Positions 570 to 13,243 of a stretch of DNA of 64,000 nt are shown one piece after another. The notes under the pieces were generated by a model. It made no database searches, was not told where the DNA came from, and saw only the letters and a list, made by a program, of their open reading frames with translations. The position numbers and the translations under genes were made by a program. Each line of letters opens with the position of its first letter. Within the stretch, counting starts at the first letter, position 1. This DNA is from a virus, in the IMG/VR virus record IMGVR_UViG_3300046779_001754, positions 1 to 64,000 of that record; one strand, given 5' to 3'.

Positions 570-636
570 TATAAATATTTTTGTTGTAGTGCCTTAGGGG
601 CTACAACAAAATCTTGCTTATTTTAAGGAGAAAAAT
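570..636 (+). promoter_or_regulatory. TATAAATA late-type promoter plus ROSE-like RNA thermometer 5'UTR of dnaK
   Basis: TATAAATA 570-577; hairpin 579-611; TCTT-G-CTTA/TAAG-GAGA hairpin sequesters the SD with a bulged G (UUGCU motif). Confidence 0.7.
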
Positions 637-2511
637 ATGAGCACAATTATTGGTATTGACCTAGGTACCACAAACAGTTGCGTAGCCGTTGTTGAAAACG
701 GTGTGGCAAAAATTATTGAAAATTCTGAAGGCGCACGTACTACCCCTAGTATTGTTGCCTACACCGACGCAGAAGTTCTTGTTGGAGCCCCAGCAAAGCG
801 TCAAGCAGTAACCAATCCCCGAAATACAATCTATGCTGCCAAGCGACTAATTGGTCGTAAGTTCCGGGAACAGGCGGTACAAAAAGACATTGACCTAATG
901 CCGTATCAGATTGTAGAAGCCCAAAATGGTGACGCATGGGTCCGAGCAAACAATCAAGACCTGGCACCTCCGCAAATCTCCGCAGAAGTTCTGCGTAAGA
1001 TGAAAAAGACTGCAGAAGATTATCTTGGTCACGAAGTCACAGAAGCTGTAATCACAGTTCCTGCTTACTTTAACGATTCGCAACGTCAAGCTACAAAAGA
1101 CGCAGGTAAGATTGCAGGCCTAGATGTCAAACGTATTATCAATGAGCCTACTGCGGCTGCCCTGGCCTACGGTGTTGACAAAGCAAGTAATCGCGATCGT
1201 AAAGTTGCGGTGTATGATCTAGGTGGTGGTACATTTGATGTATCAATTATTGAAATCGCCAATGTAGACGGTGACAAACAGATTGAAGTTCTCAGCACCA
1301 ATGGTGATACATTCCTTGGTGGCGAAGACTTTGACAATCGTATCATGGATTATCTTGTTGCTGAATTTAAAAAGGAATCTGGTGTTGACCTAAGCCGGGA
1401 CGTTATGGCGCTGCAACGTCTCAAAGAAGCAGCCGAACGTACTAAAATTGAACTCAGTAACGGCTCACAGACCGATGTCAATTTGCCTTATATCACAGCC
1501 GATGCCACAGGGCCAAAGCATTTAAATATTAAGATGACTCGTGCTCGACTGGAATCCCTAGTTGAAGATCTAATTCAACGCAGTATTGAGCCATGCCGGG
1601 TTGCCATGAAGGATGCAGGTGTTACAGCCGCTGACATTGATGAAGTTATCTTAGTCGGTGGTCAAACACGTATGCCCAAAGTACAAGAAGCAGTTGAACG
1701 ACTATTTGGTCGGGCACCTCGCAAGGATGTCAATCCTGACGAAGCAGTTGCAGCAGGTGCAGCAGTACAAGGTGCAGTGCTAGGCGGTGATCGCAAAGAC
1801 GTACTGTTACTTGACGTAACACCGTTGAGCCTTGGAATTGAAACGCAAGGTGGTGTGTTTACTAAATTGATCAACAAGAACACCACTATTCCCACAAAGC
1901 ATAGTCAGGTGTTTTCAACCGCAGATGATAATCAACCTGCTGTGACAATTAAAGTTGCGCAAGGCGAACGTGAACTATTCCAGTATAACAAGCTACTAGG
2001 TGAATTCAACTTAGAAGGTATTGACCCTGCGCCACGTGGTATGCCACAGATTGAAGTTACTCTTGACATCGATGCCAATGGTATTATTCATGTATCGGCA
2101 AAAGACAAGAAAACTGGAAAAGAAAATAAAATCACTATCAAGTCAGACAGTGGTCTAAGTCAGGAAGAAATTGACCGTATGGTCCAAGATGCCGAGGCCA
2201 ATGCCGAGGCTGATAAGAAACAACGCGAGTTAATTGAAGCTCGTAACCAAGCTGAATCAGCAGTACATGGCATTCGCTCTGATCTAAAGGACACAGGGTC
2301 ACAGCTCTCTGAGAGCGAGCGTCAGACTATTGATGATGCATTAAATGAAGTAGAAAAGGCCCAAGCTCAAGATGATGTCGCAGCAATTAAGTCTGCTGTT
2401 GAAAAAGCACTTAAAGCGTCAGCTGCTTTGTTTGAGGCCAAGGCCAAGAGTCAGTCTACGTCAGATTCCGACGACACGGTAGTTGATGCCGAGTTCAAAG
2501 AATCCAAGTAG
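637..2511 (+). CDS. dnaK: molecular chaperone DnaK (Hsp70)
   Basis: [38 protein letters not shown]-terminal VVDAEF. Confidence 0.99.
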
Positions 2512-2558: not shown

Positions 2559-3113
2559 ATGAACGTTCTTGCATTAGACATTTCAGGGCTACCACGCAAA
2601 TGGATCAGCTTTGAGGAAGCGATCTTATATCATGCTAAAAATCAAGTCGCTTGGAGTCTAGGCGAGACAGTGGCAACGTTCCGCGGTGGTTATCAACGCG
2701 GCGGCGAGCAAAGCGTTCTAGAAACTCCAAGTATCATTGCTGTAAAAGGACAAGGTTTTAGTTTAAAACGTGCGGGTCGAGTTATCCTGACTAACCGCAC
2801 ATTGTTTGCACGTGATCTGCATGTGTGTGCATATTGCGGCGAACGACATACTACGCCAAATCTAAGTCGTGACCATGTGATTCCCCGGAGTCGCGGTGGT
2901 GAGGATATATGGACCAACGTAGTTACGTCATGTCATCGGTGTAATCATTCCAAAGGAGCTCGTACTCCCGAGGAAGCTCGTTTACACTTACGTTATGTTC
3001 CTTACGAACCTAACCATTACGAGAACTTAATTCTGCAAAATCGTAAGATACTTGCAGATCAAATGGAATACTTACTGGCAGGCGTTCCAAAAAGTTCAAG
3101 ACTATGGCAATAG
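2559..3113 (+). CDS. HNH endonuclease (McrA-like)
   Basis: RD..CAYCG, DHVIPRSRGG..W.NVVTSCHRCN..KG. Confidence 0.92.
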   Translation: MNVLALDISGLPRKWISFEEAILYHAKNQVAWSLGETVATFRGGYQRGGEQSVLETPSIIAVKGQGFSLKRAGRVILTNRTLFARDLHVCAYCGERHTTPNLSRDHVIPRSRGGEDIWTNVVTSCHRCNHSKGARTPEEARLHLRYVPYEPNHYENLILQNRKILADQMEYLLAGVPKSSRLWQ

Positions 3114-4968: not shown

Positions 4969-5597
4969 TGGGCGCTAGAAATCATCATTTAATAGTTGAC
5001 TATCTAGATCAACTGTCAGGATCAATCGTAGAAATTGGTGCAGGACGCTGTGAAGGCAGCACTGATTTCTTTGCAGGTATTGCTGCATGTAGACCTGATT
5101 TAACCTATCATAGTGTAGACTTTGATCCCGAACCTCACAAGGTCATGGGCAAGTATGCCGTTAAACTACCAAACATGACTGCACATCAAATGCTTGGTGA
5201 GCAGTTCTTAGAAGATATACTAATACCTTCGGGAGAACGTGTGTGTTGGGCGTACCTAGATAATTTTGACTGGATATATTATGCTCCTGAAGATCAACCG
5301 GTGTGGTTACAAAAACAAATCATGAGATACGCACAGTTTGATTTGATCATGAACAATGAAAATAGTCAACGTGCTCATCTAGTACAAACTCAACTCATTG
5401 CTTCTATTGCTGCCGAACGATGTGTGATACACTTTGATGATACTCGTGTTGTTAGAGCTGACCAAGAACAGGGTATTCCTAGAAGCTATGATGGCAAAGG
5501 TGGTACTGCTGTGCCCTGGTTACTGACACAGGGCTGGCGTGTAATACACGGTGACAATTCCAATGTTGCCTGTGCAAATTTTAGTATTGTTGTATGA
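4968..5597 (+). CDS. putative class I SAM-dependent methyltransferase
   Basis: IVEIGAG motif I, YLD and IHFDDT downstream motifs. Confidence 0.6.
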   Translation: MGARNHHLIVDYLDQLSGSIVEIGAGRCEGSTDFFAGIAACRPDLTYHSVDFDPEPHKVMGKYAVKLPNMTAHQMLGEQFLEDILIPSGERVCWAYLDNFDWIYYAPEDQPVWLQKQIMRYAQFDLIMNNENSQRAHLVQTQLIASIAAERCVIHFDDTRVVRADQEQGIPRSYDGKGGTAVPWLLTQGWRVIHGDNSNVACANFSIVV

Positions 5598-5904
5598 AGC
5601 AAACTGAAAAGGGTTCTGGACGTGGGTTCGACTCCCACCTGGTCCACCAAAAGCATTGGGTTCGAACCCCACCGTATGCCAAGGACACCCGAAAGGGACC
5701 AACTTACACTTGCGGACTATATGGTTAGTATGCTTTTGATGGGCCAGACAAGGCTTCGACAGGGTAATGAGTAGGCAAGCAGACAACACGAGAGTCGACT
5801 GACGTAATCAGCGAAACATAGTAACTGCAAACGCAGCTAACGACGAGGTTTTTGCTCTAGCAGCCTAACCTCCGGGGCAGTTATGCCTTGTAACCCAAAA
5901 TAAC
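5584..5904 (+). ncRNA. ssrA: circularly permuted (two-piece) tmRNA; tag (A)ANAANDEVFALAA
   Basis: T-arm plus CTGGTCC-ACCA ends at 5649; intervening segment 5650-5740; 5' acceptor half GGGCCAG at 5741 (G3:U70); tag ORF 5827-5868; outer ends approximate. Confidence 0.9.
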
Positions 5905-5930
5905 AAGCCCGCTTCGGCGGGCTTTTTCTT
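5905..5930 (+). terminator. rho-independent terminator
   Basis: AAGCCCGC-TTCG-GCGGGCTT plus T-run. Confidence 0.9.
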
Positions 5931-5941
5931 GGCCAAAAAAT

Positions 5942-6039
5942 TTGCAACCTGATTGCTAAAAATGTATAATTACTATTTGCGTAGTGCTCTTGGAGATTAC
6001 GCATACTTTCTTGCTTATTTTTAAAAGGAGAAGGCAACG
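5942..6039 (+). promoter_or_regulatory. sigma70 promoter plus ROSE-like RNA thermometer 5'UTR of groES
   Basis: TTGCAA-17-TATAAT; hairpin 5978-6003; CTTTCTT-G-CTT/AAG-GAGAAGG hairpin with bulged G over the SD. Confidence 0.7.
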
Positions 6040-7957
<1,918 letters not shown>

Positions 7958-8081: not shown

Positions 8082-9107
8082 ATGAATAAACTCGTAGCTA
8101 TTGTAGCTATTTTATTTTCAACAGTGGCATCAGCAGCAGACATCACAGGTGCCGGGGCAACTTTCCCTTACCCAATTTATGCCAAATGGGCCGAAGCATA
8201 CAAAGCAGCAACAGGCATAGGTCTTAACTATCAAAGTATAGGCTCAGGTGGTGGCATTCGTCAAATCAAAGCCAAGACAGTTGACTTTGGTGCAAGCGAC
8301 ATGCCATTGAAACCCGAAGAATTAGATCGCGACGGGTTAGTGCAATTTCCAGCAATTATCGGTGGTGTTGTTCCAGTGGTAAATCTTGATGGTGTAGAAC
8401 CAGGACAATTAAAATTAACAAGTGATGTTGTGGCAGGTATTCATCTAGGTCGAATTACTAAGTGGAACGATCGAGCAATTGTAGAATTAAATCCAGGTGT
8501 TACGCTACCGGCAATCAACATTACCGAAGTACATCGTGCAGATGGTTCAGGTACAACATTTATTTGGACAAATTATCTAAGTAAAGCTAATCCAGAGTTT
8601 GCTAAAGTAATTGGTGAAGGTACAGCAGTTAAATGGCCAGTTGGTGTTGGTGGTAAAGGTAACGAAGGTGTTGCAGCCAATGTACAACGTGTTAAAGGTT
8701 CATTTGGTTACGTTGAATATGCATACGCTAAGAAAAACAAAATTGCATGGGCACAGTTAAAGAATCGTGACGGCCACTTTGTTCAACCAGATGACAGTGC
8801 ATTTAAAGCAGCAGCGTCAGGTGCAGATTGGGCAAATGCTCCAGGCATGTATCTACTATTGACTAATCAAACAGGAAAAGATTCTTGGCCAGCAACTGGT
8901 GCAAGTTTTATTTTAATGCATAAGCAACAAGCAGATGCATTGACAGGTCGTGCTATTCTTAAATTCTTTGATTGGAGTTATCGGAATGGTGCAAAAATGA
9001 GTGAGGAACTTGAATACGTTCATATGCCTCAGTCTGTAATTAAGTTGATTCAAGACAATTGGCGTCGTGACTTCAAAGGGCCTGATGGCATAGCAGTTTG
9101 GAAATAA
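8082..9107 (+). CDS. pstS: phosphate ABC transporter substrate-binding protein PstS
   Basis: GAGATFP, YQSIGSGGG, DFGASD, RADGSGTT. Confidence 0.98.
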   Translation: MNKLVAIVAILFSTVASAADITGAGATFPYPIYAKWAEAYKAATGIGLNYQSIGSGGGIRQIKAKTVDFGASDMPLKPEELDRDGLVQFPAIIGGVVPVVNLDGVEPGQLKLTSDVVAGIHLGRITKWNDRAIVELNPGVTLPAINITEVHRADGSGTTFIWTNYLSKANPEFAKVIGEGTAVKWPVGVGGKGNEGVAANVQRVKGSFGYVEYAYAKKNKIAWAQLKNRDGHFVQPDDSAFKAAASGADWANAPGMYLLLTNQTGKDSWPATGASFILMHKQQADALTGRAILKFFDWSYRNGAKMSEELEYVHMPQSVIKLIQDNWRRDFKGPDGIAVWK

Positions 9108-9112
9108 GAAAC

Positions 9113-9155
9113 TTGACAACTGATAGTTGGAAATGTTACCATTACTGGTTGTCAA
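9113..9155 (+). promoter_or_regulatory. intergenic inverted repeat / possible sigma70 promoter
   Basis: TTGACAAC...GTTGTCAA hairpin; also TTGACA-18-TACCAT. Confidence 0.4.
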
Positions 9156-9172
9156 CAATTTAAGGATTATAT

Positions 9173-10585
9173 ATGAAAACAATTAAGAAATTAGCACTAG
9201 CAGCAACCTTGATGTCTGCATTTGTTGCATCAGCAATAGCAGATGATTACACAGATACGTTGGACATTCTTTTGCAAAAAGGAATACTAACCAAGCAAGA
9301 ACATTCTGCTAAAATTGAAGCACACAAAGATCGTTTGGAGAATACACAATTCAATTCCAGTCGTATCGACAAAGACCTAAGAGATAACAACAATTACCGT
9401 CTAAGTAAAGCGAACGATGGTGCTGTTATGGAAAATGGGTTAGGCATTAAGTCTAAAGATGGTAACACCACTGCGCAGTTTACTGGTCGTATTCATATGG
9501 ATTATAGAAATTACAGTCCAGACTATGCCGCAGGTCAAACTACAGATGGTTACCAAGATGCCATGGAAATGCGTAGAGGTCGTTTTGGTGTACGTGGGCA
9601 GATTGCTCGAGATTTCAAATATCAATTGTTAGCAAACTTTGGTAATGATGTCGGTGCTAGTAGTACATCCAGTACTATCGATGAATTCTGGGTAAACTAT
9701 GATGCCAACCCTGCTGCTCAATTTCAGTTTGGTACATTTAAGATGCCATTCAGTTTGGAACAGTTGACCAGTTCAAACAACATCGATTTCATGGAACGTA
9801 GTTTGGTTGGTCAGAACGACAGCGAATTGATTCCAGCAAAAGAAACCGGTGTAATGATTCATGGTGTTCCTGCTACAGGATTCACTTATGCACTAGCAGC
9901 AAGTCGTGGTCGTGCTAATAAATCTGCCACAGTCGATGGCGCAGATATCATTGGTCGTGTGACTACAAACATTGCTGAAGTGATTCAGAACAAAGACTTT
10001 GTTGCTCACTTAGGTGCTGCATACAGTACAGGCAACATCAAAACTGGTGTTACTGCTGCCAGTGGACGTACCGAAGCACGAAATCAAAGTGCATGGTTCA
10101 CAGGTTCAGCGATGAGTGGTGAAACAGAACGTACACGCCAAGGTCTTGAAGCAGCATTTGCTTGGAAGAATGTAAAGTTACAAGGTGAACAGTTTAATTT
10201 CAAGTATGATCCAACAACAGGTTCAGATCAAGAGATCAAAGGTCACTATGTTCAAGCTGTGTATAATCTAACAGGTGAAAGCCACAACTACAAAAATGGT
10301 ATCTTCAATTGGATCAAACCCAACGCCGCTGTAACCAGTGGTGGTCCAGGTGCATGGCAAGTTGCTGTACGTGCCAGTGAATTCAACGCCGAAGATGTTT
10401 CAGTGGCCACAGGCAAAAGCAATCGTGCTACAGCAATGACCTACGGAGTAACTTGGTTTTGGAACGACAATGTGCGTTTCATGTTAAACTATGTTGACAC
10501 TAAATTTGATGCTCCAGTAGGCACATCAGGTAGTCGTGTAAATGGCGAAAAGGCTGTAATGTTGCGTAGTCAACTTAGTTTCTAA
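9173..10585 (+). CDS. phosphate-selective porin (OprO/OprP family)
   Basis: Signal peptide, RRGRFG, QFGTFKMPFSLEQLTSS..IDFMERS, C-terminal RSQLSF; follows pstS. Confidence 0.9.
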   Translation: MKTIKKLALAATLMSAFVASAIADDYTDTLDILLQKGILTKQEHSAKIEAHKDRLENTQFNSSRIDKDLRDNNNYRLSKANDGAVMENGLGIKSKDGNTTAQFTGRIHMDYRNYSPDYAAGQTTDGYQDAMEMRRGRFGVRGQIARDFKYQLLANFGNDVGASSTSSTIDEFWVNYDANPAAQFQFGTFKMPFSLEQLTSSNNIDFMERSLVGQNDSELIPAKETGVMIHGVPATGFTYALAASRGRANKSATVDGADIIGRVTTNIAEVIQNKDFVAHLGAAYSTGNIKTGVTAASGRTEARNQSAWFTGSAMSGETERTRQGLEAAFAWKNVKLQGEQFNFKYDPTTGSDQEIKGHYVQAVYNLTGESHNYKNGIFNWIKPNAAVTSGGPGAWQVAVRASEFNAEDVSVATGKSNRATAMTYGVTWFWNDNVRFMLNYVDTKFDAPVGTSGSRVNGEKAVMLRSQLSF

Positions 10586-13167: not shown

Positions 13168-13243
13168 GCGTTAGATGCTAATTGGGAATAGCCGGAGCTT
13201 CTAAACCTCCTTACAGCAGGTTCGAATCCTGTCTAACGCACCA
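13168..13243 (+). tRNA. amber suppressor tRNA (anticodon CTA)
   Basis: GCGTTAG/CTAACGC acceptor stem; GGAGC-TTCTAAA-CCTCC arm centres on CTA (C31:C39 mismatch); T-arm and CCA intact. Confidence 0.75.

Follow-up and report, generated by a model that had tools for sequence, protein, structure and literature searches.

A two-hairpin, ROSE-like leader of phage groES-groEL, a probable RNA thermometer, and its relatives on other heat-shock genes

The groES-groEL unit of a large phage is preceded by a short two-hairpin 5'-UTR, the second copy of an element that stands also before dnaK of the same phage. We regard it as a likely cis-acting RNA of the ROSE-like type, with the Shine-Dalgarno (SD) sequence hidden in the cold and opened in the warm. 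The presence of this second leader, pointed out in the initial annotation of the DNA, is confirmed, and its interpretation as part of an RNA-based regulon of chaperone genes is supported by sequence comparison, from which we infer thermosensing. In comparative scans, the predicted leader is specifically linked to dnaK, groES and hsp20, and this holds for hundreds of phages. New in this analysis are this groES copy, the family-wide count of specificity, the link to E. coli ibpAB, and the cellular copies on dnaK, rpoH-like and clpB genes.

The window, that is, the whole 64,000-nt stretch analyzed here, constitutes the first 64 kb of the 100,171-bp IMG/VR virus record IMGVR_UViG_3300046779_001754, whose completeness of about 17% (CheckV) indicates a fragment of a very large phage. 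The DNA sequencing runs containing this stretch are mostly freshwater metagenomes. The genes at the window start are ordered as tRNAs, dnaK, an HNH endonuclease gene, tRNAs, a permuted tmRNA gene, groES, groEL, pstS, and a phosphate porin gene (Table 1). Genes for HSP20, DnaJ and GrpE were not identified in the 100-kb contig, which does not mean that the phage lacks them, since the contig covers such a small part of the genome. Among GenBank phages we found no DnaK close to that of the window, the best matches having about 70% identity and resembling host DNA.

Several other features of this region deserve mention. The permuted tmRNA gene (segment 5537-5959), encoding the tag peptide ANAANDEVFALAA, matches the Rfam models beta_tmRNA (121.6 bits) and tmRNA_permuted (118.3 bits). 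The pstS gene and the OprO/P-type phosphate porin gene lie directly downstream of groEL (8082-10585). A tRNA gene at 13168-13243 has the anticodon CUA (tRNA-Pyl according to ARAGORN) and thus corresponds to an amber suppressor; the phage ORFs otherwise fit translation table 11 well. The segment 2512-3113 following dnaK contains a terminator-like hairpin and the HNH endonuclease gene (2559-3113), followed by tRNAs, while relatives carry at this position a small heat-shock protein (sHSP) gene with its own leader; the endonuclease gene may be a homing-type insertion replacing the hsp20 cistron.

Table 1. Positions of the features in the two chaperone units of the window, and loci with related leaders discussed in the text
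Feature	Position	Strand	Details
TATAAATA box (T4-late-promoter-like)	570..577	+	before the dnaK leader; sole copy in the window
Hairpin I, dnaK leader	579..611	+	dG37 -17 kcal/mol
Hairpin II, dnaK leader	612..631	+	UCUU-G-CUU paired with AAG-GAGA, dG37 -2.2 kcal/mol; UUGCU at 614-618
dnaK (Hsp70, 624 aa)	637..2511	+	PF00012, E = 5e-257
Permuted (two-piece) tmRNA gene	5537-5927		Rfam
Intrinsic-terminator-like hairpin	5905..5924	+	8-bp stem with 6 GC pairs, T-run; ends the tmRNA gene
Sigma-70-like promoter TTGCAA-17-TATAAT	5942..5970	+	10/12 consensus matches
Hairpin I, groES leader	5978..6003	+	11 pairs, bulged G5986, loop UUG, dG37 -10.6 kcal/mol
Hairpin II, groES leader (weak, SD-sequestering)	6006..6034	+	dG37 -6.2 kcal/mol
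Anti-SD UCUUGCUUA	6009..6017	+	holds the ROSE motif UUGCU (6011-6015) with bulged G6013
Shine-Dalgarno AAGGAGA	6025..6031	+	8 nt before ATG
groES (Cpn10, 94 aa)	6040..6324	+	PF00166, E = 4e-34
groEL (Cpn60, 540 aa)	6335..7957	+	starts 10 nt past groES; own SD
Three-hairpin dnaK sub-lineage with bulged A, coding sequence starting with ATGTCT (loci L058, L059, L065, L070, L074, L075, L077, L079, L089, L094, L109, L111)	about 2900-3003		
Cellular leaders (loci L247-L262, L263-L270)			GTDB; rpoH-like genes in L269 and L267, clpB in L270

Architecture of the groES and dnaK leaders

The groES leader (5978-6034) lies between a sigma-70-like promoter and groES, and comprises two hairpins, of which the first (I) is stable and the second (II) weak. 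The -10 element of this promoter extends to TATAATTA (5965-5972), one base off the TATAAATA box of relatives, and the transcription start probably falls near 5977-5978, at the foot of hairpin I. The 5' arm of hairpin II, CUUUCUU-G-CUU, faces the 3' arm AAG-GAGAAGG, so that UCUUGCUU, with the bulged G, pairs to the SD, while the start codon of groES remains unpaired in the predicted fold. RNAfold returns this same two-hairpin structure (-17.6 kcal/mol, z = -2.8), and none of 200 shuffled sequences folds as well. The element is absent from the groES-groEL junction. Two assembled contigs from RNA sequencing match the unit, a 151-nt metatranscriptome contig of a relative, covering 6001-6143 with eight mismatches and one gap over approximately 142 nt, and an exact 188-nt contig from public RNA runs that falls within groEL; strand, start and RNA origin cannot be read from either.

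As claimed in the initial annotation, hairpin I, hairpin II and the pairing of the SD are all present before groES, and the dnaK leader (579-631) follows the same two-hairpin plan, with outer stems that differ between the two leaders and pair in both. The words described as common to them are to be separated: the 13-mer TCTTGCTTATTTT is identical in both, and these two sites (612 and 6009), equally spaced from the identical SD, are its only ones in the 100-kb contig, while GTAGTGC taken alone is found seven times against seven expected, that is, with chance frequency, although it has the same position in both hairpins and includes the conserved U-G(bulge)-C top. At the position where hairpin I of the other leaders bulges out a G, G591 of the dnaK leader stands opposite G599, forming a 1x1 G-G internal loop. 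This leader has also an alternative pairing, UGCUUAU with AUGAGCA, that would hide the start codon, and if folded together with the coding sequence, it prefers this AUG-hiding structure over the SD-hiding one.

The two units had been said to be under different promoter types. This holds insofar as groES has a pair of -35 and -10 elements, and dnaK, a lone TATAAATA box, to which transcription continuing from the tRNA promoter (385-413) may add. However, the boxes are nearly identical, both conforming to TATAA(A/T)TA just upstream of hairpin I and differing by one base, and TATAAATA is found before groES as well in relatives. The single occurrence of TATAAATA in 64 kb, compared to 4.2 +/- 1.7 expected, would fit avoidance of the T4-type late-promoter word outside real promoters.

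Both leaders are located just after stable RNA genes: the dnaK hairpin begins 12 nt after the end of tRNA-Pro at 567, and the tmRNA gene ends approximately 50 nt before the groES hairpin, with no terminator between the tRNAs and dnaK. Such a neighborhood might point to a signal of RNA processing or decay, either a maturation site of the RNase III/E/P type or a device protecting the SD tetranucleotide GGAG from a RegB-like endonuclease. We find this quite improbable, as the terminator-like hairpin and the promoter separate the groES unit from the tmRNA gene, and in relatives the leader comes after the stop codon of dnaK or after ordinary intergenic DNA, no tRNA being close by. Moreover, the complementarity between the anti-SD and the SD would be left unexplained.

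Conservation, covariation and specificity

Twenty phage loci were retrieved with GroES, sixteen of them encoding GroES proteins 59-87% identical to that of the window. All sixteen keep the TATAA(A/T)T(A) box, hairpin I, TCTTGCTTA and the SD; the stem of hairpin I varies in sequence and still pairs, TCTTGCTTA is invariant, and so is the anti-SD UCUUGCUUA in the listed groES relatives. Retrieval with DnaK yielded 80 of 526 loci (75-84% identity), and the leader is present at nearly all of these 80, in some cases with an extra small hairpin. Model R1, built from three dnaK leaders, did not reach the groES leader of the window at E <= 1; it recovered the dnaK leaders and, unexpectedly, a second copy directly after dnaK in approximately 45 loci, where the gene led by this copy is a small heat-shock gene of the IbpA type or, in few loci, groES. 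Operons of the dnaK-sHSP or dnaK-groES-groEL-sHSP type in relatives have one copy of the element per gene (in locus L053, dnaK, groES and the sHSP gene each have their own), and the element is observed also between cistrons, directly after stop codons.

Within the phage itself, the two copies share the identical 13-mer and SD and no variation is visible, as one would expect of a chance resemblance or of a recent functionless duplication of a leader. We give this explanation next to no credence: the element is kept in groES leaders where GroES is only 59% identical, in the 80 dnaK loci, and in cultured phages and bacteria, and the comparative data refute it.

The leaders were aligned under the guidance of the models, since MAFFT versions misaligned the helices and the SD. 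Among 67 distinct leaders, 12 out of 14 pairs of hairpin I change on both sides, with 135 compensatory cells compared to 41 +/- 4 in shuffles and 6-20 for slid partners, and the same pattern is seen in the eleven groES leaders alone. One conserved pair is U-G in 33 cases and C-G in 18, which points to RNA on this strand and not to a DNA palindrome. In the family as a whole, hairpin II has 97% of its cells paired, and its changes are one-sided only (U-A/U-G, U-G/C-G), as expected given that one arm is the SD; hence the pairing of hairpin II rests on conservation and not on compensatory proof.

These patterns bear on a further explanation, that hairpin I is a DNA operator. It is indeed an inverted repeat beside a promoter that might bind a repressor, as CIRCE binds HrcA, with TCTTGCTTA acting either as a promoter element or as another protein site, and ROSE, too, was initially believed to be a DNA operator (PMC4166951). 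Still, this is very improbable, since the stem sequence varies both between loci and within one phage with the pairing kept, the conserved G-U pairs and the bulges are strand-specific, and the element occurs also between cistrons. The CIRCE/HrcA operator itself, TTAGCACTC-N9-GAGTGCTAA, has no match in the window with up to three mismatches; moreover, the loop of hairpin I has 3 nt, and its stem is variable in sequence.

The motif CUUGCU is found in 101 out of 128 distinct leaders (103 if CUCGCU is also counted), and 119 of the 128 show pairing between the SD and the motif. A dnaK sub-lineage, 22 out of the 128 leaders, has the anti-SD UCUUACUU with a bulged A. The element is short and abundant, and its natural variants include a bulged A for the bulged G, as well as an extended or minimal hairpin II. 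A dnaK sub-lineage with the coding sequence starting with ATGTCT has a three-hairpin leader with an additional GGGCA..GCCC hairpin, and its anti-SD is UCUUACUUU, with A bulged and not G.

We also observe a local unit common to both hairpins (5986 and 6013 in the groES leader; columns 17-19 and 93-95 of alignment A5), comprised of a U-G or C-G pair, a bulged G, and an invariant C-G pair. At its top, hairpin I pairs Y-G-C-C with G-G-R, which, by sequence, resembles a duplicate of the SD-sensing core in hairpin II.

Specificity was assessed with model R2, built from 67 phage leaders and excluding the groES leader of the window and its near relatives (L013-L020). Scanning of the whole contig with filters off identified the dnaK leader (67.1 bits) and the groES leader (5974-6042; 30.9 bits, E = 1.7e-5), with nothing else above 14.4 bits. 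Hence the earlier statement that the motif is confined to the two chaperone units is valid for the 100 kb, and the covariance-model scan proposed with it matched only these two leaders, as predicted. A narrow exact pattern retrieved nine loci from IMG/VR (seven sHSP genes, one dnaK, one groES). A wider pattern yielded 125 matches in 120 loci, of which 102 precede sHSP genes, ten dnaK, and one groES, while eight have no following ORF and four precede other ORFs. As 90% of these matches (113 out of 125) precede hsp20, dnaK or groES, the motif is not equally represented before non-chaperone genes. R2 also matches hsp20 leaders of cultured pelagiphages and cyanophages, such as Pelagibacter phage HTVC103P (34 bits), P-RSM4 (29 bits), S-SKS1, C48C1, and S-SRM01.

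Judging by sequence and predicted structure, the leader is not phage-specific. Nine out of 80 motif matches in GTDB precede heat-shock genes, most of the matches being chance occurrences inside genes; among the 18 matches with a following ORF the nine make up one half (eight sHSP genes, one dnaK), mostly in alphaproteobacterial MAGs and SAGs. The cellular dnaK copy has a chromosomal setting (purC, dnaK-dnaJ, dapB, nth). Sampling of 101 genomes from the order of this genome gave 17 R2 matches in at least 16 genomes: ten before dnaK, six before sHSP genes (confirmed by BLAST), and one before a 49-aa ORF with an sHSP-like N-terminus and no BLAST hit. A class-wide sample gave matches in at least 7 out of 151 genomes, located before sHSP genes, two rpoH-like sigma factor genes (283-296 aa) and one clpB; the counts for both the order and the class are lower bounds, as only a part of the candidates was scored. 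One genome (G188) has three copies, on an sHSP gene, an rpoH-like gene, and clpB. No cellular groES copy was seen in the sampled genomes. These data suggest a translational heat-shock regulon in small-genome Alphaproteobacteria. In the idea of an RNA-based phage heat-shock regulon put forward in the initial annotation, the word "phage" is too narrow, because some Alphaproteobacteria carry the leader on dnaK, rpoH-like genes and clpB.

Predicted temperature response and proposed mechanism

The median dG37 over the family (128 leaders) is approximately -13 kcal/mol for the region of hairpin I and -2.2 to -3.3 kcal/mol for hairpin II. Nearest-neighbour calculations predict that the energy of hairpin II changes from -12.9 kcal/mol at 10 C to -4.9 kcal/mol at 42 C, while hairpin I stays folded. 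A gradual opening with a high melting point is predicted, the probability of the SD being unpaired amounting to 0.05 at 5 C and 0.19 at 37 C. Comparable occlusion is predicted for 18-32% of the other SD-bearing genes of the phage, and hence this measure is not discriminating; the unpaired probability is below 0.1 in 18% of the phage genes, and dnaK is ranked last because of its alternative fold.

A gradual opening, as well as SD occlusion being common among the other genes, might also be expected of a temperature-independent throttle combined with an mRNA stabilizer, with hairpin II either setting a fixed low initiation rate or being opened by a trans factor, such as a protein, an sRNA, or infection-stage signals. 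The start of hairpin I at the putative transcription start agrees with such a role; UCUUGCUUA is conserved more strictly than pairing alone needs, and the conserved top of hairpin I, Y-G(bulge)-C-C with G-G-R, could be a protein site. On the other hand, the element is confined to chaperone genes and bears the exact hallmark of validated thermometers, the phage-derived model picks the E. coli ibpB and ibpA thermometer leaders, and no candidate trans factor has been seen. Overall, we consider a throttle of this kind unlikely.

Under the preferred thermosensing reading, hairpin II would hide the SD at low temperature, and little GroES and GroEL would be produced. Warming would open the weak, A-U- and G-U-rich helix, by analogy with validated ROSE-like thermometers, and allow for binding of the 30S subunit. 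Hairpin I would remain folded, serving as a folding scaffold and probably also protecting the mRNA, as it is located at or next to the RNA 5' end. The chaperone genes would be driven from phage promoters, sigma-70-like or TATAAATA, and not from sigma-32 ones; accordingly, heat control would operate through translation alone, without dependence on the host heat-shock transcription.

A broader scenario, which we put forward tentatively and hold to be somewhat less probable than its negation, is that a ROSE-type module is the translational master switch of a whole regulon (dnaK, clpB, the rpoH-like gene and sHSP) in streamlined aquatic Alphaproteobacteria, and that large T4-like phages have captured this module or copied it onto dnaK, groES-groEL and hsp20, so that chaperones are raised with temperature during infection from the phages' own promoters without the host sigma-32. 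That both hairpins contain the U-G / bulged-G / C-G unit would, in this scenario, reflect the origin of hairpin I from a duplicated sensing hairpin.

If the thermosensing interpretation is correct, the leader would provide self-contained, protein-free matching of viral chaperone production to temperature, and would bear on the response of aquatic phage infection to warming. The cellular dnaK, rpoH-like and clpB copies suggest a wider regulatory reach of the ROSE class than described.

Comparison with known thermometers

To our knowledge, the lambda cIII switch is the only RNA thermometer known among phages, and we know of ROSE-class thermometers only as textbook regulators of bacterial small heat-shock genes. 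Our literature search yielded no description of ROSE-like leaders for phage genes, nor for dnaK or groES.

ROSE-like thermometers are defined by a U(U/C)GCU anti-SD that is imperfectly paired with the SD in the 3'-proximal of two to four hairpins (PMC3669281), and a review links ROSE in all cases to small heat-shock genes (PMC4166951). The leader studied here is the 5'-UTR of a heat-shock gene, located at 5978-6034 between the promoter (5942-5970) and the ATG (6040). Single-sequence folding and the family alignment give it two hairpins, the 3'-proximal one holding the SD, and UUGCU (6011-6015), with G6013 bulged, faces the SD. The gene is not of the small heat-shock (ibpA/hspA) type here, being groES-groEL or dnaK; in relatives the element precedes sHSP genes as well.

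The Rfam models RF00435, RF01832 and RF02523 have no match to the groES leader at E <= 10. RF02523 and RF00435 have none in the whole contig at this threshold, and ROSE_2 (RF01832) matches only the dnaK leader, with 11 bits against a threshold of 65. Permissive Rfam thresholds gave noise (P24, freshwater-2 16 bits; ROSE_2 11 bits). A fourU thermometer, which requires a run of four uridines opposite the SD, was rejected, as the partner of the SD, UCUU-G-CUU, has C-G pairs and a bulged G. Since the Rfam models fail and the gene is groES, we class the groES leader, on the basis of its predicted structure, as a ROSE-like variant outside the catalogued families.

A close likeness exists to the validated two-hairpin ibpA thermometers of Pseudomonas (ROSE_3, RF02523), in which hairpin II melts and hairpin I is left folded (Krajewski et al. 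2013, PMC3669281). Both have a 5'-UTR of approximately 60 nt with two hairpins, a stable hairpin I, a short and weak hairpin II in which U(U/C)GCU pairs imperfectly to the SD, and an unpaired AUG. Unlike the Pseudomonas elements, the one described here is phage-borne, it precedes groES-groEL (and dnaK) rather than a small heat-shock gene, and the promoter is sigma-70-like or TATAAATA, not sigma-32. Moreover, the SD/anti-SD core is flanked by A-U and G-U pairs and not by G-C clamps, and the U-G / bulged-G / C-G top conserved in hairpin I is peculiar to the present element.

With rhizobial hspA and E. coli ibpA/ibpB (RF00435, RF01832) the leader shares U(U/C)GCU with the bulged G opposite the SD in the 3'-proximal hairpin, while these classical elements are longer and have three or four hairpins. 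Among the R2 matches in the E. coli ibpAB locus, the ibpB leader ranks first (16.6 bits, E = 0.007) and the ibpA leader second (8.7 bits). The E. coli K-12 ibpB leader (L271, 2896-2954, minus strand), located between the ibpA and ibpB cistrons, with ACUCGCUU paired to GAAGGAG, thus outscores the classical ibpA thermometer under this model.

The Anabaena "avalong" thermometer (Cimdins et al. 2014, PMC4152365) also has two hairpins with a heat-stable hairpin I, and the bulged base of its ROSE-like anti-SD is not G, which parallels the bulged A of the phage dnaK UCUUACUU sub-lineage. It differs in being cyanobacterial and located on an sHSP gene, and in its long hairpin I with an alternative anti-SD in the loop. 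The chromosomal leaders of Alphaproteobacteria, finally, have the same layout as the phage leader, the same hairpin I top and the same pairing of UCUUGCUUA with AAGGAGA; they differ in being cellular, mostly with one copy per genome and with three in one.
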